Positions 2,439 through 13,900 of a DNA stretch of 64,000 nt are shown here, one piece after another. How positions within the stretch are numbered: the stretch's first letter is position 1; every line of letters starts with the position of its first letter. Under the pieces are notes generated by a model. It had not been told where the DNA came from. It saw only the letters and a list, made by a program, of their open reading frames with translations, and did not search any database. A program made the position numbers and the translations under genes. Location: IMG/VR virus record IMGVR_UViG_3300021400_000034, positions 128,001 to 192,000 of that record; one strand, written 5' to 3'. Source of the DNA: a virus. Its lineage: Duplodnaviria; Caudoviricetes.

Positions 2439-3059
2439 ATGAACGTAACTGACTTCAAAGACAACAAAGAGTACATCAAGTACATGGACAAGGGCATCAT
2501 CCCTGGCATCTTCGGACTCCAGGACACCCTGATCGACGCATACGTGAAGATCGAAGGAGAGAACGACCCGCAGAATCCGTACAACATCCACCGTCATCTC
2601 GACATCAACAACACTCGCGACCAGCTGATCATCAAGATCCTCTCTCAGCGCGTGATCGAAGAGCTCGCCGAGATGAGCATGGCTGGACACAACATCGAGC
2701 ACGTCAAGGAAGAGTTCGTAGACGCTCTCATCTTCGCGACGGAGATGATGATCTTGCTAGACGTGAAGGCCGAGGATCTCAACGAAGACTACACGCTCAA
2801 CGACAACTACAGTCTGCCGTTCGGAAACAGAATGATCGTGATCGACTATCTCGCTTCCGCGACGAACTGCTTGAAGAACAAGAGCTGGAAGAAGGATCAG
2901 GTGCTCGTGGACGCTAAAGCGTTCTGGCGCAGAATCATGAAGTTCTACCAGCACCTCTTGGCGCTCGGCACTAACATCTTCGGATCGAACACGGACATGT
3001 TCCTCTACTTCTACGCGAAGTGGTCGACGAACAAGTTCCGTCAGGTCTCGAACTACTAA
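2439..3059 (+). CDS. All-alpha dCTP/dUTP pyrophosphatase (gp56/MazG-like)
   Basis: EELAE...EEFVDALIF acidic motifs, K.W and NKFRQ C-terminal motifs; GAGG SD. Confidence 0.65.
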   Translation: MNVTDFKDNKEYIKYMDKGIIPGIFGLQDTLIDAYVKIEGENDPQNPYNIHRHLDINNTRDQLIIKILSQRVIEELAEMSMAGHNIEHVKEEFVDALIFATEMMILLDVKAEDLNEDYTLNDNYSLPFGNRMIVIDYLASATNCLKNKSWKKDQVLVDAKAFWRRIMKFYQHLLALGTNIFGSNTDMFLYFYAKWSTNKFRQVSNY

Positions 3060-3079
3060 CTGATCCATAGCAGAGCCGC

Positions 3080-3112
3080 GAGAGTGGAGCCGTCATGAGC
3101 TCCGCTCTTTTT
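3080..3112 (+). terminator. Rho-independent terminator
   Basis: AGAGTGGAGC...GCTCCGCTCT followed by T-run. Confidence 0.7.
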
Positions 3113-3235
3113 GTGTAGATGCAACTATGTAGAGGCAACCATGTTTAGAAAGTTTTACAAAAGTTTCTCATAAAAATATGTATATTGTTGTATAAATAAA
3201 ACAATCAAAGCTGGAATACAGCGCAAAGGAATAAA

Positions 3236-3364
3236 ATGATCCTGACCGGAACGACATATCAGTCAAAATACGCCAATCACAAGGCGGTTGAAAATTGCGG
3301 TCGCGATCAAGGCTTGAGAAGCATCGATCCAAGATTTGCAATCGAGCCGAACCGCTGCGAATGA
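3236..3364 (+). CDS. Putative 42-aa leader peptide of the tRNA operon
   Basis: AAGGA SD, ATG 3236, TGA 3362-3364 overlapping an antiterminator arm. Confidence 0.5.
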   Translation: MILTGTTYQSKYANHKAVENCGRDQGLRSIDPRFAIEPNRCE

Positions 3365-3431
3365 CTTCCAGTCTCTAAGACGCTTTTATAAGAGGAGAAC
3401 GAGGAAGTCACCACGACTTCCTCTCTTTTTT
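3362..3431 (+). promoter_or_regulatory. Attenuator-like terminator/antiterminator
   Basis: Terminator GAGGAAGTC-accac-GACTTCCTC + T6; alternative pairing TGACTTCC(3362-3369)/GGAAGTCA(3403-3410). Confidence 0.55.
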
Positions 3432-3496
3432 GTATAAGCGTCGAAACACCGTCTCGTGAAGATGATGTGCAGATTGACATTTCGGCAATGACTTAT

Positions 3497-3570
3497 GGAC
3501 CGGTAGCCCAACTGGCAGAGGCAGGGCACTCAAAACGCCCGCAGTGATGGTTCGAATCCATCTCGGTCCA
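3497..3570 (+). tRNA. tRNA-Leu(CAA), short variable arm
   Basis: Cloverleaf, loop CT-CAA-AA, GGTTCGAATCC. Confidence 0.8.
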
Positions 3571-3575
3571 CTTAT

Positions 3576-3649
3576 GGGGCTGCATGTACCAAGGCTGGCG
3601 ATGGATCTTAGCAAGATTCGTGAGAAGGGTTCGATTCCCTTCGGTTCCA
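3576..3649 (+). tRNA. tRNA-Ala(AGC)
   Basis: Loop TT-AGC-AA, G3:U70, atypical D arm. Confidence 0.7.
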
Positions 3650-3655
3650 CTACAT

Positions 3656-3729
3656 TAGGTCGTAGTTCTAATTGGCAGAACGCCTGGCCGTTAACCAGGA
3701 TGTTGCAGGTTCGAGTCCTGCCCTCCCAG
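3656..3729 (+). pseudogene. Degenerate tRNA-Asn(GTT)
   Basis: Good D/AC/T arms, C33, acceptor stem with 3 mismatches. Confidence 0.55.
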
Positions 3730-3736
3730 CTAATTT

Positions 3737-3810
3737 CAGCGTATAGCTCAGTCTGGTAGAGCGTTGGTTTCGGGTACCAAAGGTCGGTGGTTCGAATCCA
3801 CCTACGCTGA
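3737..3810 (+). tRNA. tRNA-Pro(CGG)
   Basis: Cloverleaf, TTGGT-TTCGGGT-ACCAA. Confidence 0.9.
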
Positions 3811-3846
3811 CTCTTTAGAAAAACTTTGAAAATGACAAAATTTGAC

Positions 3847-3875
3847 TTTACAAAACAGCTAAAAATTCCTATAAT
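3847..3875 (+). promoter_or_regulatory. Early (sigma70-type) promoter family TTTA(C/G)(A/G)-N17-TATA(T/A)T
   Basis: Same motif with -35 at 5241, 12934, 14855, 17371, 19860, 21784, 25355, 49043, 51698, 55057 (+) and 36732-36759 (16-nt spacer), 39642-39670, 41223-41251, 42093-42121, 43796-43824 (-). Confidence 0.75.
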
Positions 3876-3911
3876 ATATATGTAAAACTCTTAAAGAAAA
3901 GGACCTGAACT

Positions 3912-4253
3912 ATGAAATTCAGAATCGTCTACATCGGCAACACCCGCCACATCAAGGAACTCAAGGCTGCAGCCCAGGAATTCAACCCCACCGCCCGCTC
4001 TCAGTGGCTCGGGATCTGCTTCCCGGACGACGCGATCGAAGCTGAAGTCGAAAGCGTAGAAGAGGGCAAGAAGCTCATGGCCCACATCTACAAGAAGGTC
4101 AACTGCTTCCCGAAGAAGTACTCTTACGTGGACGGACCGGAATGGTGGTCCAACGACATGAAGCACTTCCTCGGCACTTCTGTCTGCTCCGACCGCTTCG
4201 ACTACGAGAAGCCAGTCACCGAAGAACACTTTGAAGACTTCTTGGAGGCATAA
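3912..4253 (+). CDS. Hypothetical early protein
   Basis: ORF after early promoter with AAGGACC RBS. Confidence 0.75.
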   Translation: MKFRIVYIGNTRHIKELKAAAQEFNPTARSQWLGICFPDDAIEAEVESVEEGKKLMAHIYKKVNCFPKKYSYVDGPEWWSNDMKHFLGTSVCSDRFDYEKPVTEEHFEDFLEA

Positions 4254-4537
4254 TGATCTGGAAGCGCTCTACATACAGTCACAGCGGAACGCTCGCTGTG
4301 TTCGCAAACGATGACGATGGCAGTCCTTACGGCGTCGCTACCGTATATCTGGAAGGGCAGAGCGAAACGCTCCCCAGAGACTGCGCATTCGTCGATACGA
4401 ACAACTGGCCAGACATCGTCGAGACGCTGGAGAAAGCCGATCTCGCTGAAGAGCTGATCGACTCCTATGGCTCTTCGGGATTCTGCGTCTATCCAGCGAT
4501 GCGCTTCAAGATCGAGAAGATCTCGGAAGCACGATAA
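4253..4537 (+). CDS. Hypothetical protein (DUF4313-like)
   Basis: PYG.ATV.L...AFVDTNN...SGFCVYP pattern. Confidence 0.55.
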   Translation: MIWKRSTYSHSGTLAVFANDDDGSPYGVATVYLEGQSETLPRDCAFVDTNNWPDIVETLEKADLAEELIDSYGSSGFCVYPAMRFKIEKISEAR

Positions 4538-4557
4538 ATTAAGTAGATTTGTTCTAC

Positions 4558-4631
4558 GCCCCGATAGCTCAGCTGGATAGAGCAACTGCCTTCTAAGCAG
4601 TAGGTCGCAGGTTCGAATCCTGCTCGGGGTA
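4558..4631 (+). tRNA. tRNA-Arg(TCT)
   Basis: Canonical cloverleaf. Confidence 0.92.
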
Positions 4632-4755
4632 CTACCGAGTCTAGCTCTCGACCTATATCCTCACACAAATATGGGTTTCCCTTAAACTAACATACTGCTA
4701 GACTCTGTCATGGTCTTCTCCGTTCCCATGAATAAAGAACCGAGACGCCTTTCAT

Positions 4756-4829
4756 GGATCTGTATGACAACTGGAATAGTCGAGGCGACTTTTAATCGTC
4801 GGATCTGGGTTCGAGTCCCGGCAGGTCCA
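4756..4829 (+). tRNA. tRNA-Lys(TTT)
   Basis: GGCGA-CTTTTAA-TCGTC, T arm. Confidence 0.85.
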
Positions 4830-4842
4830 CTAACATAGAACA

Positions 4843-5034
4843 ATGGAGATGAAGATGAAGAAAGACAAGAAAGAGCCTGAGACTTGGGAAGAGAAGAAGA
4901 ACCGCTGGGAGAAGCAGACGAAGAAGGCACTGTCTTTCGCTAAACAGAGCGGAATCGACGTCAAGAAGTTACAACGCGAACGAGCTAAGAACGAAGCTGA
5001 GAAGAGAGATCGATCTCGTTCGCAGTTCTTCTAA
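4843..5034 (+). CDS. Small basic hypothetical protein
   Basis: ORF between tRNAs with phage codon usage. Confidence 0.55.
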   Translation: MEMKMKKDKKEPETWEEKKNRWEKQTKKALSFAKQSGIDVKKLQRERAKNEAEKRDRSRSQFF

Positions 5035-5039
5035 GACAA

Positions 5040-5124
5040 GGCCACATGGCGGAACTGGTAGACGCTATGGACTTAAAATCCATTGAAGGTAATCTTCGTG
5101 AGAGTTCGAGTCTCTCTGCGGCTA
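5040..5124 (+). tRNA. tRNA-Leu(TAA)
   Basis: Type II cloverleaf. Confidence 0.88.
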
Positions 5125-5127
5125 TAC

Positions 5128-5219
5128 TGGGCAGTCGCCAAGTCTGGTTCAAGGCCCCGGACTTTGACTCCGGTAGAGAGGAAGTTCCTCCGTCAGTGGT
5201 TCGAATCCACTCTGCCCAA
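5128..5219 (+). tRNA. tRNA-Gln(TTG) with long variable arm
   Basis: CCGGA-CTTTGAC-TCCGG; extra GAGGA-agt-TCCTC hairpin. Confidence 0.8.
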
Positions 5220-5340
5220 TAAAAAATTCTAGAAATAGGGTTTAGAAACTGAACTTCAATTTCTATATTCTAATCATCGTCAATCGATGAGGCTCTTCCG
5301 AGAGAAGAACCAGCAAATTGAAATTTCGGCAATGACTTAT

Positions 5341-5414
5341 TCCACTCTAGCTCAATTGGTAGTAGCGGGCGGCTGTTAACCGCCAGGTTCCTGGTTCGAG
5401 TCCAGGGAGTGGAG
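5341..5414 (+). tRNA. tRNA-Asn(GTT)
   Basis: Canonical cloverleaf. Confidence 0.92.
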
Positions 5415-5415
5415 C

Positions 5416-5822
5416 TACACACGCGGTAATTGTTTTACAGTTTCTGCTTGGCGTGAGCATTCCTCCGTCCGGGGTGCCTTTTGAGCCCTCGGGTCGCGGT
5501 AAAAGAATGAAACTGGAGAGACTAAGTTGAAAAGGCTGCGATGTACCGCACAGGTGAAGTAAGTGCAACAACACTGGTTTCGAATTAAATGGCGAGGAGC
5601 CATCGAGAGAAGTCGAACTGTGGTAAGAGCAGAGGCTCTACGCTCTGGAGGTTGCATACTCCGGACGTGGACTACAAAGTGCATCCGATCGTCGCGGATA
5701 TTCTTCTTTCGATACGGGCAAATCGCAAGTCAGGAACAGTCATGCAAGACTCAGTACTGGCGAGCTCTTTAACGAGAGAGAACACTGCACTGAGGTCACC
5801 GCAGTCTAATCAAACCTCACCT
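5416..5822 (+). ncRNA. Large structured ncRNA candidate (possibly GOLLD/ROOL-like)
   Basis: ~400 nt between two tRNAs, no credible ORF, multiple helices (CAGTTTC/GAAACTG, TGAGGT/ACCTCA). Confidence 0.4.
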
Positions 5823-5823
5823 C

Positions 5824-5896
5824 GGGGCCGTGGCGCAATTGGTAGCGCATCAGATTTGCATTCTGAGGGTTGCGGGTCCGACTCCCGCCGGTTCCA
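5824..5896 (+). tRNA. tRNA-Ala(TGC)
   Basis: Cloverleaf, G3:U70, T loop TCCGACT. Confidence 0.85.
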
Positions 5897-5899
5897 CTA

Positions 5900-5960
5900 T
5901 AGATCCTAACAGCAATTCAAAGCACATTCCTGTTAAGAATCGAAAGCTAAAATGGATCTA
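5900..5960 (+). ncRNA. ACAGCAA-stem element E1 carrying an Asn(GTT) anticodon stem-loop
   Basis: TAGATCC/GGATCTA stem, TAACAGCAA, ATTC-CTGTTAA-GAAT. Confidence 0.7.
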
Positions 5961-5967
5961 GTCATTT

Positions 5968-6040
5968 CAGTCTGTACGTCAATTGGTAGACGGATGGTTT
6001 TGGGAACCATTAGTTGAGTGTTCGAGTCACTCCAGACTGA
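5968..6040 (+). tRNA. tRNA-Pro(TGG)
   Basis: Cloverleaf. Confidence 0.88.
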
Positions 6041-6161
6041 CTACTAAAAGAGGGACAAGAGGCTTCCACCTCCTGATCGAATTTCGTCGTTCGATCTCAC
6101 CTCTATACAATATGAGGATATGGAAGAATCCTCGTAAAAATAAAGATAACAGAGGCGAATT

Positions 6162-6944
6162 ATGATTTGCGAAAATTGCGGAAAAGAACATGACGGTTCT
6201 TACGGAAGTGGAAGATTCTGCTCTAGAGATTGCAGATTTTCTTATATAGGTAAACAGACTAACAAGAATGGTAAACATACTGGTCATCCTAATTATAATA
6301 CTGGAAGGACTCATTTTACTGCTTCACCAGATGGATGGAAATGCAAATGGTGTGATTTAGTCTTTAGAACTAGACGTGAACGTTCAAAACATTCAAATGA
6401 AGTTCATATACGCGATAAAAAGCATCCTTGGAATTATGGACTAACCAAAGATACTTCTAAAAAGGTAAAAGAGAGTACAGAATTAGTTAGGGAACTATAC
6501 AAAGCTGGAAAAATTCGTAAACCTGACAAAAAATTAGTATGGACGGAAGAGAGAAGACAAAGACAATCTGATAAGAAAAAGAAGTTTTATTCTGAACATC
6601 CAGAAGCACATCCAAATCGAAAATTAGCTAATAATCGTTCTAAGATGAGTTATCCAGAAAAGATAGTTTACGATTGGCTTACTGAGAAAAACATATCTTT
6701 TGAACATAATAAGCTGATAAGAACTAAAACTATTACGAGATATGTAGATTTTTATCTAAAAGACAATAATCTTATAATAGAAGTTGATGGAGAATTTTGG
6801 CACAATAGAAAGATTGAAAAAGATAAAAAGAAAGATTTTGAAGCCGAAGAAGCCGGTTATACTACTCTCCGAATAAAAGCAAAAGAGAGGATAATAGACC
6901 GATTAAATGACTTCTTCAGCTATCATATAAAAACGCTGGAATAG
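6162..6944 (+). CDS. Homing endonuclease (Zn fingers + DUF559/Vsr-like PD-(D/E)xK domain)
   Basis: CENC, CSRDC, CKWC; SYPE...VDFY...IIEVDGEFWH; AT-rich; stop lies inside the next tRNA. Confidence 0.75.
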   Translation: MICENCGKEHDGSYGSGRFCSRDCRFSYIGKQTNKNGKHTGHPNYNTGRTHFTASPDGWKCKWCDLVFRTRRERSKHSNEVHIRDKKHPWNYGLTKDTSKKVKESTELVRELYKAGKIRKPDKKLVWTEERRQRQSDKKKKFYSEHPEAHPNRKLANNRSKMSYPEKIVYDWLTEKNISFEHNKLIRTKTITRYVDFYLKDNNLIIEVDGEFWHNRKIEKDKKKDFEAEEAGYTTLRIKAKERIIDRLNDFFSYHIKTLE

Positions 6945-7007
6945 CTCAGCTGGTAGAGCAGGGCTTTCGTAAAGCTCAGGTCGGCAGTTCGAGCCTGTCT
7001 TCCAGCG
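6935..7007 (+). tRNA. tRNA-Thr(CGT)
   Basis: Cloverleaf. Confidence 0.88.
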
Positions 7008-7019
7008 CTACTGAAATTA

Positions 7020-7142
7020 GAGATGGTAACAGCAATTCTCTTTAGGCTGGTAACCTCGTGGTCGCGGGTTCGAGTCCCGTCTGGTCAGTCTCCGGATTGA
7101 TCGGTAGCTCAGTTGGTAGAGCACGTACAAGAAATCCATCTC
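7020..7142 (+). ncRNA. Element E2: circularly permuted tRNA(GGT)
   Basis: GAGATGG/CCATCTC stem, AACAGCAA; 3' piece 7044-7088 precedes 5' piece 7098-7125. Confidence 0.8.
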
Positions 7143-7148
7143 GTCTTT

Positions 7149-7222
7149 GGTGCCGTGGTGAAGTGGCCTAACACATCGGTCTGTCTAACCGACATACGCG
7201 AGTTCGAATCTCGCCGGCATCG
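7149..7222 (+). tRNA. tRNA-Asp(GTC)
   Basis: Cloverleaf. Confidence 0.88.
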
Positions 7223-7225
7223 CTA

Positions 7226-7555
7226 TGATCTGAAGGAGAGACTCTAGCAATAGTGGAGTCGCTATCCTTGCAAAGGCCGCTACATTGAGCGTTACTTCGC
7301 CGTCAATTGGATCCAATGGAAGGACGCTTACTGGTTGATCAGCAGAAGTCAATTCGACGTCAACATGATGTCACCGACGAAGGCTGTGATGGAGTCAGGG
7401 GAGAGCATAGGCATAAGCATCCTGGCCCGGCCGCTGGAATCTCGAATTCATTTCAACCATCGAACGAGTCCGATGGTTCTATCGCGAAAAATAACGGCAT
7501 AAGCGCGAGACAGGTAAAGTCTTCGGTCACAAGACTATAAATGACCGGCCGTACA
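7226..7555 (+). ncRNA. Unknown ~300-nt structured RNA
   Basis: 5' TGATCTGAAGG pairs with TCTTCGGTCA (7520-7529); internal hairpins; between tRNAs. Confidence 0.4.
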
Positions 7556-7556
7556 A

Positions 7557-7640
7557 GTCAGCTTCGGATAGCGGCAATTCCAGGAGACTGTAAATCTCCT
7601 GCCTTAACGGGCTTCGTAGGTTCGAGTCCTACAGCTGGCA
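7557..7640 (+). tRNA. tRNA-Tyr(GTA)
   Basis: Type II cloverleaf. Confidence 0.9.
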
Positions 7641-7647
7641 CTAATCC

Positions 7648-7823
7648 ATAGCGTCTGAATTCAAGTACGTATCTTCGTAGCTCAGTTGGTAGAGCGCAGG
7701 CCGAGAGGGCCTGAGGCGGTGGTTCGAGTCCATTCGTCGACCGTGAAGAGGGGGAGGCTTGGAGAGGATATCGGTTGAACTGTGAACTCGAGATAGCTTT
7801 TCACTCTTATCCTCAGCGCTATT
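7648..7823 (+). ncRNA. tRNA-like domain nested in a larger closed RNA
   Basis: Outer ATAGCG/CGCTAT stem; canonical D and T arms; AC loop lacks U33; poor acceptor stem. Confidence 0.55.
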
Positions 7824-7825
7824 AT

Positions 7826-7898
7826 GCTGGAATAGCTCAATTGGCAGAGCGTCGCCTTTGTAACGCGAGGGTTGGGAGTTCGATTCTCTCTTCCAGCG
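7826..7898 (+). tRNA. tRNA-Thr(TGT)
   Basis: Cloverleaf. Confidence 0.85.
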
Positions 7899-7959
7899 CT
7901 ATAATGAAAAGAATTGTAAAAGTTTTCTAAATCTTGGCTTTATCGATATAAATAGACAG

Positions 7960-8589
7960 ATGGTTCACTACACTGTCTATAAGATAACAAATCTTCTAAA
8001 CGGGATGATCTACATCGGTAAGCACAAGACGGAGAATCTGGACGATTCTTACATGGGATCTTCTGAGTGGTTGAAGTCTTCTATCAAGAAGCACGGAATA
8101 GAGAACTACAAGAAAGAGATTCTATTCGACTTCGAGACAAAAGAAGAGATGGACTTGAAGGAGAAAGAGCTAGTCAACGAAGAGTTCGTCAGACGCAAAG
8201 ATACATACAATCTGAACACTGGCGGAACTGGAGGCTGGTTCGCATGTAACAGCTCTGGTCTGAATCATTCGGCTGGTCAACATCTTCTCTCAGGCGAGAG
8301 ATGTCGGAAGGATCCAGAATACCGGAAGAAGTTCTGCGAGAAAGTGAGCGAGGGACTAAAGAAATATTACGAAGATCCAGAACATCGTCTCTATGGCGTC
8401 AAGAACCCTAGATACGGAATTCAGCTCACTCCGGAAGAGAAAGCGAGACTCAGCGCATCTCATTCTGGAAAGAAGAACGGTTCTTACGGTTCGCACTGGA
8501 TAACGAACCCGAAGCTGAAGAAGAACATGAGACTGAAAGGACTTGTGAAACTTCCAAGAGGTTGGAAGTTCGGAAGAAAGAAGTATTAA
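7960..8589 (+). CDS. GIY-YIG homing endonuclease (Seg-like)
   Basis: VYKITN..NGMIYIGKH...YMGS...YNL; late promoter at 7947. Confidence 0.9.
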   Translation: MVHYTVYKITNLLNGMIYIGKHKTENLDDSYMGSSEWLKSSIKKHGIENYKKEILFDFETKEEMDLKEKELVNEEFVRRKDTYNLNTGGTGGWFACNSSGLNHSAGQHLLSGERCRKDPEYRKKFCEKVSEGLKKYYEDPEHRLYGVKNPRYGIQLTPEEKARLSASHSGKKNGSYGSHWITNPKLKKNMRLKGLVKLPRGWKFGRKKY

Positions 8590-8592
8590 CGA

Positions 8593-8664
8593 CGCGGAGT
8601 GGAGGAGTGGTTTCCTTGAAGGGTTCATACCCCTTAGACCCCGGTTCGAGTCCGGGCTCCGCTA
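8593..8664 (+). tRNA. Initiator tRNA-fMet(CAT)
   Basis: C1 mismatch, three G-C pairs in the anticodon stem. Confidence 0.8.
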
Positions 8665-8669
8665 CTAAT

Positions 8670-8935
8670 TTTAGTCAAGTCAATGTCGGGCCGTTTGACT
8701 CGCGCTTCGATGTAACGACATACTTGGCAAGGCGTCAGTGAAGTGATGGCCATCGCGGATCTTTCGCCGGATCTTTTAAAGCGTAGCGCATGTACCGATA
8801 GAGATCTCCTGAGGTTGCGAACTCTCTTGATCTTGACAAGCAGGTAGCTTCGGTCCCGTCGTTGAGACGGTGCAAAAAGTCTCAGTCGTCGCAACGGCTG
8901 TGATCGCGGTTCGAATCCGTCGTGCGTGACACAAT
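8670..8935 (+). ncRNA. Unknown ~260-nt structured RNA ending in a T-arm-like hairpin
   Basis: Hairpins, TGAGAC/GTCTCA alternative pairing, GCGGTTCGAATCCGT near the 3' end. Confidence 0.35.
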
Positions 8936-8938
8936 TTA

Positions 8939-9037
8939 GAGATACCGACAGCAATTCATTGTTAGTGGTTCGAATCCATAAGCTGAATAGCTGCGGTCTG
9001 GCGCAAGTCAGATGGGCAATACAAACAGCGGTATCTC
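8939..9037 (+). ncRNA. Element E3: T-arm-first degenerate permuted tRNA-like payload
   Basis: GAGATACCG/CGGTATCTC stem, ACAGCAA, GTGGTTCGAATCCAT followed by two hairpins. Confidence 0.7.
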
Positions 9038-9042
9038 GTCAT

Positions 9043-9114
9043 GGTCCCTTCGGCCAGTGGTTAAGCCATCGCACTTTCTATGCGAGGACCCCAGTTCGAC
9101 TCTGGGAGGGACTA
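9043..9114 (+). tRNA. tRNA-Glu(TTC)
   Basis: Cloverleaf. Confidence 0.88.
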
Positions 9115-9229
9115 CTAAGAGTGACTCGGTGGGTGTTCGCGGCTGATAGTCCTAACACACCTCCGGCAACACTTCGAACTAGATGACTAGCTACTGCGAC
9201 GAGTTCGAAGGAGAACACTCTTCGTTTTT

Positions 9230-9299
9230 GAGATAGGTACAGCAATGATCACCAACTCTGCTCCATCATGCGGTTCGTGGCGTTAGGCCACTCTATCTC
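9230..9299 (+). ncRNA. Element E4 (payload unclear)
   Basis: GAGATAG/CTATCTC stem, GTACAGCAA. Confidence 0.65.
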
Positions 9300-9366
9300 G
9301 TAAACTTGGGTGCGCGGTCGGAGGAAGCCCTCCGGAGTTTCTCAATTCTCGAAAAATTGATCATAT

Positions 9367-9439
9367 CCCGGTATAGTTCAGTTGGTAGAACAGCTCCTTC
9401 ATACGGAGACGGTCGCAGGTTCAAGTCCTGCTATCGGAA
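9367..9439 (+). tRNA. tRNA-Met/Ile2(CAT)
   Basis: Cloverleaf, loop TTCATAC. Confidence 0.78.
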
Positions 9440-9445
9440 CTATAT

Positions 9446-9518
9446 GCCTCGCTGGCGCAATTGGTAGCGCAAGGCACTCTTAATGCTTGGGTTGAAGGTT
9501 CGAGTCCTTCGCGGGGTA
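9446..9518 (+). tRNA. tRNA-Lys(CTT)
   Basis: Cloverleaf. Confidence 0.9.
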
Positions 9519-9646
9519 CTAAAATCTATCTCATGCTTATTAAGCTACGGCATGAGCTCTAGCTATGTTTCGTCCGAGAGCCATCAGGTATAAAAAGCGG
9601 TCAGGGCACGGTTCTTGCTCTAAAGCGGTCGCTAGCATGAACTTTT

Positions 9647-9719
9647 CTCCGGTTAACTCAGCGGTTAGAGTGCCATCCTTACAAGTTGGAAGTCCGGGGT
9701 TCGAATCCCTGATCGGAGA
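9647..9719 (+). tRNA. tRNA-Val(TAC)
   Basis: Cloverleaf. Confidence 0.88.
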
Positions 9720-9725
9720 CTACTA

Positions 9726-9793
9726 AAGATCCTAACTGCAAATTTCTTATAACATCCGATTGGTAATCAGACTACGTTAGAAAAATGGATCTT
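9726..9793 (+). ncRNA. Element E5 carrying a Thr(GGT) anticodon stem-loop
   Basis: AAGATCC/GGATCTT stem, TAACTGCAA, TCCGA-TTGGTAA-TCAGA. Confidence 0.68.
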
Positions 9794-9804
9794 GAAATTT
9801 TTAT

Positions 9805-9878
9805 CGGCATCTAGCGCAATTGGTTAGAGCACTGCTCTGATAAGGCAGAGGTTTTTGGTTCAAGTCCAAGGTTGCCGA
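9805..9878 (+). tRNA. tRNA-Ile(GAT)
   Basis: Cloverleaf. Confidence 0.85.
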
Positions 9879-9882
9879 CTAA

Positions 9883-9938
9883 GAGGTTCTTACAGCAATT
9901 CTACAATCTTCTTTTTGGTTAAGAAAAAAAGGAATCTC
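9883..9938 (+). ncRNA. Element E6 carrying a Pro(TGG)-like anticodon stem-loop
   Basis: GAGGTTCT/GGAATCTC stem, TACAGCAA, TTCTT-TTTGGTT-AAGAA. Confidence 0.62.
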
Positions 9939-9944
9939 GATTAT

Positions 9945-10018
9945 CCACCTATAGCTCAGAACGGTAGAGCGGAAGACTGAAGATCTTCGCGTCGGAGTCT
10001 CGAACCCTCCTAGGTGGA
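9945..10018 (+). tRNA. tRNA-Phe(GAA)
   Basis: Cloverleaf with atypical T loop. Confidence 0.8.
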
Positions 10019-10027
10019 CTACAATAT

Positions 10028-10109
10028 CCCCTCGTGGCGGAACTGGTAGACGCGCCTGACTTAGGATCAGGAGCCGAGAGGCGTGCAGGTTCGAGTCCTG
10101 CCGAGGGGA
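10028..10109 (+). tRNA. tRNA-Leu(TAG)
   Basis: Type II cloverleaf. Confidence 0.92.
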
Positions 10110-10113
10110 CTAT

Positions 10114-10223
10114 AAGATAACAGACAGCAATCATCTACCCCAAAGCGGCTATGTTGGTGAAAGTCCAGCCGTCGATGTATGTCGGCGTCATCTAATCTAG
10201 GATTCCGCTCAAAATGTCATCTT
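10114..10223 (+). ncRNA. Element E7: permuted tRNA opened in the anticodon loop (Gly CCC-like)
   Basis: AAGATAACA/TGTCATCTT stem, GACAGCAA; AGCGG-T arm-acceptor hairpin-D arm-CCGCT. Confidence 0.7.
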
Positions 10224-10229
10224 GACTAT

Positions 10230-10303
10230 ACTCCGTTGGTGTAATGGACTTAGCATACGGGCCTACGAAGCCCTTGATCCAAGTTCGAATCTTGGACGGA
10301 GTA
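10230..10303 (+). tRNA. tRNA-Arg(ACG)
   Basis: Cloverleaf. Confidence 0.88.
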
Positions 10304-10315
10304 CTATTCCATGAT

Positions 10316-10436
10316 TAGATCCAAACTGCAACTCTCAAATCGTTACCATCAATCAACGGCCAAGCATCTCGGGATGCGCCTAGCTACATGGACTGGGAGA
10401 GGAGGGTTCGAATCCCCGGAAAATGAATCGGATCTA
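10316..10436 (+). ncRNA. Element E8 with a T-arm-containing payload
   Basis: TAGATCC/GGATCTA stem, AACTGCAA, GGGTTCGAATCCC. Confidence 0.65.
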
Positions 10437-10623
10437 GCTAAGCTCTCGATGCTGCTGACATTACGTCTAAATCGGAAAAACGCTATTCCATGTCTCGTGA
10501 AAGATATAAGCGAGAAGCAAGATAGTTAGCTCTGCATCGTCGATGCTAAGAGAGACGATGTCGTCATATATCCTCTGAACGGTCTTCGAGACAAGCGCTA
10601 AATCAACGCACAGGATAAATTAA

Positions 10624-10696
10624 GCTGACGTGCCGAAGTGGGAACGGAGGAGTCTGCAAAACTTTCTATGAGTGGGTTCGATTCCTACCGTCAGCT
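10624..10696 (+). tRNA. tRNA-Cys(GCA)
   Basis: Cloverleaf, U73. Confidence 0.88.
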
Positions 10697-10701
10697 CTAT
10701 A

Positions 10702-10811
10702 CAAGATGTCAACCGCAATTCCTTTCCAGGGTAGCTCTAGAGGTAGAGCACCGTCCTTGAGGCGGAAGAAGCTGGTTCGATCCCAGCCCCGGGAGCACAG
10801 ACGGCATCTTG
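10702..10811 (+). ncRNA. Element E9: whole tRNA-like payload with a 5-nt anticodon loop
   Basis: CAAGATGTC/GGCATCTTG stem, AACCGCAA, CCGTC-CTTGA-GGCGG. Confidence 0.7.
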
Positions 10812-10822
10812 ACAATTTAAAT

Positions 10823-10906
10823 CGGGCTATTACCTTGGGCCGGACTCATAACCCGGGCCGTTAAAATCCAGGGCGGTGCGGAGAGGTTCGACTCCTCGTG
10901 GCCCGA
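10823..10906 (+). tRNA. D-armless tRNA(CAT)-like RNA with long variable arm
   Basis: CGGGCTA/TGGCCCG acceptor, CTCATAA loop, T arm, no D stem. Confidence 0.55.
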
Positions 10907-10909
10907 TAA

Positions 10910-10994
10910 GGAGGACTACACTAATTGGTAAGTGACCACGGTGCTAACGTGGCGCCTCGAAAGAGGCTTCCAGGTTCGAGCCCTGGGTCCTCCG
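10910..10994 (+). tRNA. tRNA-Ser(GCT)
   Basis: Type II cloverleaf. Confidence 0.88.
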
Positions 10995-11076
10995 CTAAAG
11001 ATCTTAGGAGTCGTTGCCCTAAGCAACGTGGAGCGCACGCGCCGGTACCGTCCAGAGCCGTCAAATCTGGACTTTT

Positions 11077-11167
11077 GGAAGTGTGCCAGAGTCTGGCTTA
11101 TCGGACCGGTCTTGAAAACCGAGGGCGGTACCCATTCCGCACGGGGGTTCGAATCCCTCCACTTCCT
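11077..11167 (+). tRNA. tRNA-Ser(TGA)
   Basis: Type II cloverleaf. Confidence 0.88.
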
Positions 11168-11172
11168 CTATC

Positions 11173-11243
11173 GCGTCCTTGATGTAGTGGTAGCACTTCT
11201 CATTGCCTGTGAGAAAGCGCCAGTTCGAATCTGGCAGGACGCT
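11173..11243 (+). tRNA. tRNA-Gly(GCC)
   Basis: Cloverleaf. Confidence 0.85.
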
Positions 11244-11266
11244 TACTTTTCTATATTTAAAATACA

Positions 11267-11348
11267 GAGATAGACACAGCAATCCTTTTGGATAACGTAA
11301 TGATCTGCAAAATCAAAGCTAGACGGTCCAAATCCGTCAATCTATCTC
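11267..11348 (+). ncRNA. Element E10: Cys(GCA) anticodon arm + T-like arm
   Basis: GAGATAGA/TCTATCTC stem, CACAGCAA, TGAT-CTGCAAA-ATCA, GACGG-TCCAAAT-CCGTC. Confidence 0.7.
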
Positions 11349-11356
11349 GTTCATAA

Positions 11357-11427
11357 GCACCACTGGTCTAAAAGTATGATCAAACTCTTCCAAAGTTTGG
11401 GAACCGGGGCAGTACCGGTGTGGTGCT
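11357..11427 (+). tRNA. tRNA-Gly(TCC)
   Basis: Cloverleaf with atypical T loop GGCAGTA. Confidence 0.75.
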
Positions 11428-11430
11428 CTA

Positions 11431-11545
11431 GAGATTCCAACAGCAAACTCTGGTTTTTTCCGCCGTTGGGAAAATAGCTCAATTGGTAGAGCGCTCGTCA
11501 CTATGACGAGAGGTTACGGGTTCGAGTCCCGCTAAAGTGAATCTC
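11431..11545 (+). ncRNA. Element E11: tRNA permuted between T arm and acceptor
   Basis: GAGATTC/GAATCTC stem, AACAGCAA; acceptor hairpin, then D, AC and T arms. Confidence 0.72.
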
Positions 11546-11552
11546 GTCTTTT

Positions 11553-11626
11553 GGCTCTGTCGAATAACTGGTTCAGTTCGTTAGCCTCTCAAGCTAGAAA
11601 TTCGGGTTCAAGTCCCGACAGAGCTA
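11553..11626 (+). tRNA. tRNA-Glu(CTC)
   Basis: Cloverleaf. Confidence 0.88.
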
Positions 11627-11632
11627 TACATC

Positions 11633-11706
11633 CCCGCAGTAGTGTGAATTGGTTAGCACGCCTGCTTGTGGCGCAGGAAGTTCGGGTTCGAATCTCGGCT
11701 ATGGGA
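11633..11706 (+). tRNA. tRNA-His(GTG)
   Basis: Cloverleaf; no encoded G-1, A73. Confidence 0.8.
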
Positions 11707-11844
11707 CTAAGTCACTGATGAAGATGATGTAAGTAAGCCCGTCCAAGGTAGATCCTTTTGGGGCTAGTGCAGTAGCATAAGTTGCGGTATAGAGGCTGAG
11801 AATGCGTACAGGATAGCTCAGTAATGCGTCATCAGAGACTTTCA

Positions 11845-12225
11845 ATGATAGGCACAGCAACTCTAACACGTTCAATACATCAAATGCTGACGTGCAGAGC
11901 TACGGGAAATTGCCTTGATCGACGAGGACAGGGCCATGGTCGAGCAGCGCAGCTGAATCTCGATCACCTTGACGGACGGTCAGAACGTTCGTCTAACTTC
12001 CGGGCAGACTGCTCGGTAAGATCTTGCCCGTCTCTGATAGTTCCAAGACGAAGAACTTGGTGCTTGCTCTAATAAGTAAGGAGATAGTGCTGGTGACACC
12101 AGATAGCGTCAATGAGAAACCGTTGACTGATCTTTTGTAAGCTGCTATTCGAATCAAGAGAGAAGCGACACGAAGCAGCGGAGACTGAAAAGACAGCAAA
12201 CTCTAATCGGTCTCGTCCCTATCAT
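11845..12225 (+). ncRNA. Element E12: ~380-nt element with hairpin-dense payload
   Basis: ATGATAGG/CCTATCAT stem, CACAGCAACTCTAA. Confidence 0.55.
12181..12214 (+). ncRNA. Element E13: minimal empty element nested in E12
   Basis: GAGACTGA/TCGGTCTC stem, GACAGCAAACTCTAA. Confidence 0.55.
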
Positions 12226-12231
12226 GTTTTC

Positions 12232-12302
12232 TGCCCGTTGGTATAACGGTATTACACCTGACTCTGACTCAGGTGACGGTGGTCCGACTCCATCACGGGC
12301 AA
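12232..12302 (+). tRNA. tRNA-Gln(CTG)
   Basis: Cloverleaf. Confidence 0.85.
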
Positions 12303-12420
12303 TATGGAATGATAAGGTTCAGCCTCTGTTCTAGAGATCGGTGAATTCGCGACACTTCATCGAGATCGAGAACTACCACCAGCACGATCTGTCTTCGAAG
12401 CGGATCAAAAGAGGCATTCT

Positions 12421-12492
12421 AGGGAATTCGTATATCGGTTATTACGGCGGTCTCCAAAACCGTTCAGCTCTGTTCGACTCGGAGATTCCCTG
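12421..12492 (+). tRNA. tRNA-Trp(CCA)
   Basis: Cloverleaf. Confidence 0.85.
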
Positions 12493-12495
12493 CTA

Positions 12496-12624
12496 GAGAT
12501 TCTAACAGCAGAACGGTCTGTAAAACCGTTGGCTTTCGCCTTCGCAGGTTCGAATCCTGTCCACCTCCATACGAGGAGGTGTGCCCGAGCTGGTCAAAGG
12601 GGACGGTCCGCTAAAATGAATCTC
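12496..12624 (+). ncRNA. Element E14: circularly permuted tRNA-Tyr(GTA)
   Basis: GAGATTC/GAATCTC stem, AACAGCA; AC-V-T arms, CACCTCCA, linker, GGAGGTG, D arm; ACGGTC duplicated. Confidence 0.8.
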
Positions 12625-12629
12625 GTTCT

Positions 12630-12714
12630 CCTCCGGTACCCGAATTGGTATAGGGGCCTGCTTGAGGGGCAGGTGGGCGATATGCCCGTGAGAGTTCAAG
12701 TCTCTCTTGGAGGA
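12630..12714 (+). tRNA. tRNA-Leu(GAG)
   Basis: Type II cloverleaf. Confidence 0.88.
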
Positions 12715-12831
12715 CTAAAGTTTGTTCTTGCAAGGCGGACTCCGTCAATTAAGTCAATCATGTCGAGATGGACATGGGACGACGGAGGACGTGACCCCCT
12801 GCTCGGTGTCAGGCTAAAACGCCGCTATTTG

Positions 12832-12845
12832 AAGTCATTGCCGAA
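12832..12845 (+). repeat. Trailer complementary to leaders at 3481-3494 and 5325-5338
   Basis: AAGTCATTGCCGAA is the exact reverse complement of TTCGGCAATGACTT. Confidence 0.8.
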
Positions 12846-12879
12846 CACTTCCTCGCTTTTGTGGGCTTTAGGCGAGGAC

Positions 12880-12914
12880 AGCGAGTTCAGGACCGCTCTG
12901 AACCCGCTCTTTTT
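12880..12914 (+). terminator. Terminator ending the RNA operon
   Basis: AGCG.GTTCAG/CTGAAC.CGCT + T-run. Confidence 0.65.
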
Positions 12915-12994
12915 GTAGATTTTCGAATAATGGTTTACGAATTCTCCAAAAAGACCTATATTTAAAACGAAACCTCAACAAGAAGGACCATATC

Positions 12995-13165
12995 ATGGCT
13001 ACCGAAACCGAAAAGAAAGAAACTCACAACTGTGTCATCTGCGGAGATCCGTTCACTGGCTACGGAAACAATCCAGTCCCCGTCAAGTTCTCGGGACGCT
13101 GCTGCGACACGTGCAACGGCAGGTACGTCATTCCCGCTAGATTCATGTTAGCCGCTGCAAAGTGA
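12995..13165 (+). CDS. Small Cys-rich (Zn-binding) phage protein
   Basis: CVICG..GYGNNP...CCDTCN..VIPAR; early promoter and AAGGACC RBS. Confidence 0.7.
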   Translation: MATETEKKETHNCVICGDPFTGYGNNPVPVKFSGRCCDTCNGRYVIPARFMLAAAK

Positions 13166-13308
13166 TGGAATACCGCGAGACTGACAGACTGAGAGATCAG
13201 AGAATCGAAGGAACGGACAACGGCCGAACTCTTCGCACTCGCGTAGTGAGAGACAAGACTAAGTACACTCGAAAACTCAAGCACAAGGAGACAACTGAAA
13301 ATGAGTAA
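13165..13308 (+). CDS. Small basic protein with ArfA-like motif
   Basis: RTRVVRDKTKYTRKLKHK; start overlaps the upstream stop. Confidence 0.5.
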   Translation: MEYRETDRLRDQRIEGTDNGRTLRTRVVRDKTKYTRKLKHKETTENE

Positions 13309-13900
13309 AGTGACTATTGAAACACGAGAAGAAACACGTGAAGAAATCTTCAAGAAGATGAAGCGCTGGACCAATGCAATGCACAGGCTAGAAAGAGAGC
13401 GCTCTTTTCACAAACAGAACCTCAGGATGTGCAAGTTCGTCAATCTCTCATGCAACGAGCAGATCAGAATCGTCCAGCATGAAGCTGATGAGATCAACAG
13501 ACGCTCAGTCCGCATCATGAACCTTCGCCATCTCCACAACGACCAATGGCGAGGACTCACCTACGAAGATCGCTGCCGCTACCGCTTCTGGGTCGCAAAC
13601 GAGCCTTTTCCGAACGATCTCTATGAGCAGTGGACTGAGACTGGAGCTAAGCGCTCGTTCTTCGACTGGCTCAAGAAGCCAGATCACGCTTCAGAGATGA
13701 AGAAGGTCATCGAAGAGTTTGACGACAAGCTGACCGTCATCGGAAAGGCAGACTTCGACGCTGCTCCGAACTCTACTGAGCTGAATGTAGAGATGCGCCT
13801 CACTAGGGTAGAAGCTGAGAAGATCGCGAACAAGATCATTCACTTCCTCGCTAGCTCAACCGCCGCTGAGCTCATCTTGGACCTTCACGATGAAGATTGA
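13301..13900 (+). CDS. Hypothetical protein
   Basis: ORF with AAGGAG SD. Confidence 0.7.
   Translation: MSKVTIETREETREEIFKKMKRWTNAMHRLERERSFHKQNLRMCKFVNLSCNEQIRIVQHEADEINRRSVRIMNLRHLHNDQWRGLTYEDRCRYRFWVANEPFPNDLYEQWTETGAKRSFFDWLKKPDHASEMKKVIEEFDDKLTVIGKADFDAAPNSTELNVEMRLTRVEAEKIANKIIHFLASSTAAELILDLHDED

Follow-up and report, generated by a model that had tools for sequence, protein, structure and literature searches.

Leader-peptide attenuators and the phage locus

Leader-peptide attenuators precede the amino-acid operons of enterobacteria, as in the trpL, hisL, leuL, thrL, pheL and ilv leaders. Attenuators of this kind in amino-acid operons have been reviewed, for example, in PMC1183508. 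We describe here an element at the head of a phage tRNA array that resembles these leaders in its layout, and we compare it with the trp and his leaders in particular. First of all, a putative promoter, a short ORF, a predicted intrinsic terminator and the genes that would be regulated follow one another in the same order. Second, the 5′ arm of the terminator has an alternative partner upstream, which a terminating ribosome could cover. Third, a segment further upstream can sequester that partner, giving the 1:2, 2:3 and 3:4 logic of the classical leaders, and the terminator is again somewhat more stable than the antiterminator. The phage element, on the other hand, has no sequence homology to the trp and his leaders and differs from them in several ways. 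The genes downstream specify phage tRNAs and not biosynthetic enzymes, and the leader ORF lacks a regulatory codon run. Segment 1 is situated in the 5′UTR, outside the ORF, and includes the Shine–Dalgarno (SD) sequence in two clades. The peptide itself is conserved, and the terminator is embedded in a long hairpin that can be complete only in read-through RNA.

Two other systems, bmrB–bmrCD of Bacillus subtilis (PMC4191407) and the mef/mel leader (PMC4335068), are ribosome-mediated attenuators that sense general inhibition of translation. The phage element shares with them a leader ORF that lacks an amino-acid-specific codon run and an arrangement in which slowing of the ribosome at any suitable place on the leader would favour the antiterminator. 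They, however, respond to antibiotics, control resistance transporters and reside on bacterial chromosomes or mobile elements, whereas the output of the phage element would be tRNA supply. A third comparison can be made with bacterial rRNA operons, in which leader–trailer and processing stems flank a stable-RNA transcription unit. Similarly, the leader of the phage array (3481–3494) is perfectly complementary to a trailer just past the last tRNA (12832–12845), and a long hairpin precedes the first stable RNA. Bacterial rRNA operons differ in that they lack a translated leader ORF and, at this position, offer no choice between terminator and antiterminator.

Literature searches returned no publication describing such control for phage tRNA genes. 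Why large phages carry tRNA arrays, and by what means these are controlled, is still debated, codon compensation and escape from tRNA-targeting defences being among the explanations offered (e.g. PMC10264068). A translation-sensing switch at the head of the array, if true, would mean that the phage monitors how well decoding proceeds and sets its supply of tRNAs to match. Leader-peptide attenuation would thereby reach beyond amino-acid and resistance genes to viral stable-RNA genes. That the element is a ribosome-dependent transcription attenuator is the interpretation developed here, and we hold it to be evenly poised between right and wrong; the other explanations are weighed below together with the evidence that bears on each of them.

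The element and its relatives

The window, that is, the whole stretch of 64,000 nucleotides that was analysed, comprises bases 128001–192000 of a source record of 243,336 bp with direct terminal repeats, which belongs to a T4-like phage of rumen or gut metagenomes. The phage carries T4-like genes for the large subunit of topoisomerase II and a DNA end protector. Searches of cultured phages by blastn and tblastn matched tRNAs only, with no relative of the leader peptide and no close cultured phage, and a search of IMG/VR with the neighbouring 113-aa gene gave no match. Relatives were gathered through the neighbouring protein, through DNA patterns and through two peptide sequence/profile searches, followed by look-ups of the encoding contigs, and they originate from rumen or gut metagenomes. 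The collection comprises seven peptide clades (A–G) with 16 distinct ORF sequences, the window's own element being clade A and the peptides of the other clades being 32–44% identical to that of the window. The seven clades are related and are not independent of one another. The features of the element in the window are as follows:

3144–3186, + strand: possible early-type promoter pieces, GTTTAGA (3144–3150), TTTACA (3154–3159) and TATATT (3181–3186)
3191–3198, + strand: TATAAATA box, a T4-type late-promoter motif found in 7 of 7 clades
3210–3224, + strand: segment 1, the 5′UTR strand of the closing helix (GCTGGAA and CAGCGC), which pairs with the end of the ORF and segment 2
3226–3231, + strand: SD sequence AAGGAA, separated from the ATG by 4 nt; every clade has a purine-rich SD
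3236–3364, + strand: leader ORF, 42 codons and TGA, with homologues of 40–45 aa in seven clades
3237–3248 with 3298–3309, + strand: conserved RNA hairpin I, with compensatory changes in 3 pairs
3311–3317 with 3342–3348, + strand: conserved RNA hairpin II, within the ORF
3362–3369, + strand: segment 2, TGACTTCC, which contains the stop codon and has segment 1 or segment 3 as alternative partners
3379–3442, + strand: long hairpin, with an outer stem (3379–3391 with 3430–3442), an A-rich/U-rich middle and the terminator core at its tip
3401–3431, + strand: predicted intrinsic terminator, GAGGAAGTC / GACTTCCTC at 3401–3423 (9 bp, 5-nt loop) followed by TCTTTTTT at 3424–3431; segment 3 is the 5′ arm (3401–3409), segment 4 the 3′ arm (3415–3423) and 3424–3431 the U-tract
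3453–3494, + strand: tRNA-array leader, with the conserved CTCGTGAAG hairpin loop (3453–3461) and TTGACATTTCGGC (3474–3486)
3497–3811, + strand: first tRNA cluster, consisting of Leu(CAA), a tRNA-like element (3576–3652), Asn(GTT) and Pro(CGG)

All clades share one order, namely TATATT, TATAAATA, SD, an ORF of 40–45 codons, segment 2, a variable spacer, the terminator core, the U-tract, the array leader (CTCGTGAAG and TTGACAnTTCGGC) and tRNA-Leu(CAA). The last of these is the first gene to follow the element in clades A to F; clade G carries an inserted homing-endonuclease gene behind the array leader. The gene upstream of the element differs among clades and the array leader follows in every case, so that the element belongs to the tRNA array. 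The array-leader motif is also found 3′ of the element in 10 of 10 true matches in JGI metagenomes, and a metagenome scan with this motif revealed no new clade with a changed core.

Rearrangements were seen in some contigs. In L030 (830–1021), a clade-B variant, the leader ORF is replaced by unrelated sequence from codon 38 onwards, which yields a fusion of 63 aa with a further gene behind it. Either the leader has received an insertion or the assembly is chimeric, and the contig ends 5′ of the terminator region. Homing-endonuclease-like genes (DUF559/Vsr-like, NUMOD3) occur at varying sites in L016, L036, L038 and one clade-C contig, either just 3′ of the element or among the first tRNAs, and the one in L038 has a TATAAATA box of its own.

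Promoter motifs and the start of the leader RNA

There are eight copies of TATAAATA in the window compared with 0.43 expected (at 780, 3191, 7947, 14370, 19085, 30518, 52636 and 56063). Each of them lies on the + strand and directly 5′ of an SD–ATG, from a few to about 45 nt before the ATG. Together they look like a T4-type late-promoter regulon. Promoter activity of the box at 3191 is predicted from its sequence, with an RNA start near 3204 that places the box at about −10. No homologue of a gp55-type sigma factor was confirmed in the region scanned. The TATATT further upstream is kept in 7 of 7 clades; its distance of 21–22 nt from TTTACA is non-canonical, which makes it uncertain whether these motifs function as promoter pieces, and a sigma-70 scan did not report those at 3144–3186. 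In the mechanism that we propose, the TATAAATA box would be the site of transcription initiation, and the upstream TATATT perhaps a second one.

The leader ORF is under coding selection

Several features of the ORF are those of a coding sequence. In a frame-blind MAFFT alignment of the ORFs, 13 of 13 gap runs are multiples of three, and third codon positions are more variable (0.505) than first and second positions (0.42). Variants of the same length inside clades differ by six synonymous and three non-synonymous changes, where 21% synonymous changes would be expected (P = 0.004), and dN/dS ranges from 0.3 to 0.7 in comparisons between clades. The frame of the leader ORF is the only one that is open in all clades, and ORFs on the minus strand show no conservation across clades. 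From the gap lengths, the synonymous excess, the dN/dS values and the sole open frame, we infer that the ORF is translated and mildly constrained. Part of the constraint on its sequence stems from RNA structure, since hairpin I has compensatory changes in three pairs.

Purifying selection on the peptide is not something that a mere sensor needs, and it counts against an attenuator. It would be accounted for directly if the locus were an ordinary small late gene that has a promoter of its own, ends in a terminator that leaks in part and codes for a functional micro-protein, and the succession of TATAAATA box and SD–ATG is indeed the layout of the other late genes. Segment 2 would then be kept for nothing but its role as 3′ strand in the closing helix, by which the mRNA is stabilised or its translation limited, and its complementarity to the terminator arm would have no regulatory role. 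Against a micro-protein gene, however, stand the absence of any match to the peptide in Pfam or PHROGs, the lack of a predicted fold (AlphaFold on the peptide alignment, pLDDT 52, which is weak evidence either way) and the constant association of the element with the tRNA leader rather than with the gene upstream of it. We consider this explanation unlikely, and further evidence on it, for and against, comes from the RNA structures described in the following sections. A type I toxin and a RiPP precursor were considered for the peptide and rejected, as it is hydrophilic, its Cys pattern is unconserved and no modifying enzymes are encoded nearby.

The stop codon is followed by C in 7 of 7 clades and is never TAA. 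Such a weak context would fit a long dwell time of the terminating ribosome, a reading that is confounded by the sequence of segment 2.

A covarying helix closes the leader RNA

The minimum-energy fold (−87 kcal/mol, z = −6.5) pairs segment 2 with GCTGGAA (3210–3216) in the 5′UTR, and the resulting closing helix closes a junction that holds the two hairpins within the ORF. Helices between the 5′UTR and segment 2 are present in the minimum-energy folds of all clades, built in each from clade-specific sequences; in clades C and F, segment 1 includes the SD. When applied to the element as a whole, RNAalifold recovers hairpin I and the terminator core only. Two variable parts, the closing helix and the long hairpin's outer stem, are misaligned by MAFFT, and we thus tested both by comparing cognate with non-cognate chimeras. 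For the closing helix, the duplex energy is −15.1 for cognate strands compared with −10.0 for non-cognate ones, and compensatory changes are evident in CAGC/GCUG versus CAAC/GUUG and in GGAC/GUCC versus GGAU/AUCC. This covariation is also what a micro-protein gene with a structured mRNA would predict.

A closed junction of this kind, followed by a terminator, has the architecture of a P1-type aptamer with its expression platform, and the element could be an RNA switch that works independently of the ribosome. The three-way junction formed by the closing helix and hairpins I and II would sense a ligand, a protein or a tRNA; as in OFF riboswitches, a stabilised closing helix would leave segment 3 available to the terminator, and the ORF would be secondary. 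The very stable fold, with its z of −6.5, and the covariation of hairpin I and the closing helix are in line with such a switch. It leaves aside, however, the selection on the ORF, evident in gaps of three and multiples thereof, in the synonymous excess and in conserved start and stop positions. Furthermore, the unpaired regions of the junction are unconserved between clades, and an Rfam scan of 2900–13500 with E values up to 1 gave no match in 3130–3496. We regard a ribosome-independent switch as rather improbable.

Segment 2 can pair with the terminator arm

In the window, the TGA stop (3362–3364) constitutes the first three bases of TGACTTCC, and this segment is perfectly complementary to GGAAGTCA (3403–3410), with 33 nt in between. 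The terminator arms are identical in 15 of 15 distinct sequences from the seven clades, while the loop, the spacer (20–31 nt) and the outer stem vary, and a GC-rich 9-bp stem followed by a U-tract is present in every clade. Segment 2 is invariant in 12 of the 15; the exceptions are two sequences with the same one-base substitution (L033 and L035) and a one-base insertion in clade D. The distance from the stop codon to the start of segment 2 is 0–4 nt throughout, and it is achieved in two ways, by the TGA of segment 2 itself in clades A, C, F and G and by a TAG-C just before segment 2 in clades B, D and E, the TAG being 1 nt away from the segment. The footprint of a ribosome reaches about 12 nt from the A-site codon. 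Segment 2 falls within that distance in both layouts, and a terminating ribosome would be predicted to cover it whole.

The pairing between segments 2 and 3 extends over 8–13 bp and takes up 8–9 of the 9 bases of the terminator 5′ arm. When nascent RNA up to segment 3 is folded, the minimum-energy structure pairs segment 2 with segment 3 in 11 of 11 representatives, with local energies of −13.5 to −20.4 kcal/mol for the antiterminator compared with −15 to −22 for the terminator. Additional, clade-specific pairs extend the antiterminator into the terminator loop (clades B, D, E and F) and at its base (clades C, D, F and G). Segments 2, 3 and 4 being invariant, the 8-bp core shows no covariation, and support for the antiterminator thus rests on these flanks, for which cognate combinations (−17.3) are more stable than non-cognate ones (−15.3; permutation P = 0.006, or 0.02 when clade E is left out).

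The pattern of conservation is informative in two further respects. Segment 2 contains an invariant AC (TGAC in clades A and G) that has no partner in the closing helix, and only pairing with segment 3 accounts for its invariance. Moreover, invariance of segments 3 and 4 amid a changing loop, spacer and outer stem is as expected of a strand that has to fit two partners. For a micro-protein gene, by contrast, the invariant AC, the co-varying antiterminator flanks, the two different solutions that fix the stop position and the constancy of the terminator stem beside a freely changing outer stem are all difficult to accommodate. What it does have in its favour here is that natural variants weaken the antiterminator pairing, by a mismatch in L033 and L035 and a bulge in clade D, both without a compensating change; these variants also count against the antiterminator.

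An initial annotation of this DNA, made from its letters alone, had proposed a leader-peptide attenuator on the basis of an SD and a 42-codon ORF at 3236–3364, a stop codon within an 8-mer complementary to the terminator 5′ arm and a terminator hairpin with a U-tract upstream of the first tRNA. These elements are all present, the complement of TGACTTCC and GGAAGTCA is perfect, and tRNA-Leu(CAA) does begin at 3497, past the hairpin. The annotation had also called for both conformers to be folded and for conservation to be sought in related phages. The folds bear it out, the antiterminator being the minimum-energy state of the nascent RNA at an energy near that of the terminator, and so do the relatives, in which the ORF, the position of its stop and the antiterminator and terminator cores are kept in seven clades. 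The geometry of an attenuator is thus strongly supported by the open ORF, the fixed stop, the invariant cores and the covarying flanks and outer stem. Missed at that stage were the TATAAATA box, the second, covarying partner of segment 2 in the 5′UTR and the hairpin of about 64 nt around the terminator.

As a check on chance, an upstream complement of at least 8 nt is found for only 2 of 19 perfect-stem terminators in the 243-kb genome, and at the array the pairing persists in seven diverged clades despite a freely changing spacer. The other of the two terminators lies on the minus strand outside the window (reverse-complement coordinate 196747), with an 8-nt complement to its 5′ arm. We also considered that the terminator at the array might be bidirectional and rejected this, since its minus-strand tail is not U-rich in clade A and the neighbouring genes are all on the + strand.

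The long hairpin and the read-through RNA

The 3′ arm of the outer stem lies past the U-tract, so that read-through RNA alone can form the stem. Each clade builds it from unrelated sequences, with a cognate energy of −29.1 kcal/mol compared with −22.3 kcal/mol for non-cognate chimeras, and the cognate combination is the best in 6 of 7 rows and columns. As the outer stem both covaries and needs read-through, the read-through RNA is under selection. The long hairpin may be an RNA processing site.

A near-continuous hairpin of this length, with a covarying outer stem, resembles a processing stem, and it raises the question of whether the structured leader RNA of about 225 nt is itself the main product, perhaps as a dual-function small RNA and likened to the stable RNAs of the T4 tRNA region. 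The long hairpin would then be chiefly an RNase III-type processing or stability element, and termination would be constitutive, partial and unregulated. The closed 5′ end, the strong 3′ hairpin and the very low folding energy would suit such an RNA, and the array holds other small RNAs. This explanation, however, accounts neither for the place of the stop codon on segment 2 nor for the match between segment 2 and the terminator arm with its clade-specific extensions, and as a rival to the attenuator we judge it very improbable; it is, moreover, compatible with the attenuator and does not exclude it.

Proposed mechanism of attenuation

In the attenuator interpretation, each transcript would carry a short translated ORF that lies within a conserved RNA fold and ends exactly on segment 2. 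Two pairings would then compete for this segment. The first, with the 5′UTR, would be the state of the finished, untranslated RNA; the closing helix would shut the completed leader RNA and, in clades C and F, would also hide the SD. The alternative, with the 5′ arm of the terminator, would constitute an antiterminator of 8–13 bp.

The outcome would depend on where the ribosome is at the time the terminator is made. If it is at the stop codon, segment 2 would be covered, the terminator would form and a leader RNA of about 225 nt would be released. If, on the other hand, the ribosome is late or has stalled, segment 2 could capture segment 3 as it emerges, and the polymerase would read on into the array leader. 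The read-through product would include the tRNAs Leu(CAA), Asn and Pro and might extend through the entire array, and the RNA would later refold into the long hairpin, probably a processing site. When no ribosome is present at all, the outcome would hinge on whether the closing helix traps segment 2 kinetically. Since segment 1 is outside the ORF, a stalled ribosome need not block the closing helix, unlike in trp. Tight coupling of transcription and translation is assumed in this scheme.

Codon content and the possible signal

The leader ORF of the window uses 19 amino acids and 34 distinct codons, the first 19 of which are all different, and a recount agrees with these figures of the initial annotation. 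Its codon diversity is high in comparison with the phage's own genes (P = 0.001), the corresponding value against unbiased codon choice being P = 0.08. The relatives use 26–33 distinct codons, which is at or below the expectation for uniform use, and 17–19 amino acids, Trp being absent from all of them. The annotation had argued from codon diversity that the leader is a general sensor of the tRNA pool, responsive to depletion of any tRNA. This argument fails because the other clades are ordinary in codon diversity; the diversity is unconserved and matches unbiased codon use. The interpretation given there thus divides into a geometry that withstood comparison across the seven clades and a pool sensor, argued from codon diversity, that did not.

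A more specific signal is hinted at by UUG, the codon read by tRNA-Leu(CAA), whose gene is the first one downstream. It occurs 11 times in 299 leader codons compared with 2.4 expected and at least once in every clade. The Asn and CCG codons of the leaders show no significant enrichment. The conserved UUG is located in the stem of hairpin II; as it could be fixed by RNA structure, and as the clades are related, the enrichment is suggestive and goes no further. The signal to which the switch responds could be slow decoding, possibly of UUG. More tentatively, and with doubt prevailing over confidence, the element could be a feedback sensor of decoding capacity, in which slowed leader ribosomes lead to more transcription of phage tRNAs; the slowing could come from a shortage of tRNAs such as Leu(CAA) or from host defences that cleave tRNAs. 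Such a sensor, if true, would be trp-style control applied to the tRNA supply of a virus.

The tRNA array and its leader

The window holds 33 tRNA genes (3497–12715), and the array trailer is followed by a terminator at 12885–12903. The array leader consists of a hairpin, whose loop CTCGTGAAG is conserved and whose stems covary, and of TTGACAnTTCGGC after it. No canonical promoter was found between the terminator and the first tRNA (3432–3496). A TTGACA at 3474 was considered as a −35 box and rejected, since no −10 follows it, the motif recurs in another promoter-led tRNA leader and it shares bases with the trailer-pairing strand of the leader. Internal promoters of the array are located at 3847, which is the next clear promoter after the first cluster, and at 5241, and only part of tRNA expression would thus depend on the switch.

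Several minor observations concern the array itself. The tRNA-like element at 3576–3652 in the first cluster is not called by ARAGORN and has a weak match to the Rfam tmRNA-ends model (19.8 bits); a similar element is found at the same place in L002 (about 7963–8040). At 5241–5340, a near copy of the array-leader motif (TTGAAATTTCGGCAATGACTTAT) stands behind a promoter-like TTTAGA-17-TATATT and immediately ahead of the second tRNA-Asn, which suggests a duplicated leader-plus-tRNA unit. The sequence AATGACTT is present in both segment 2 (3360–3367) and the array leader (3487–3494), so that the trailer in clade A could have a second pairing site of about 9 nt in the segment 2 region; the other clades lack this pairing, which is probably a coincidence. 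Finally, a region among the tRNA genes (7057–7125) has a sub-threshold Rfam match to YrlA, a Y RNA-like family, at 38 bits compared with a gathering score of 69.
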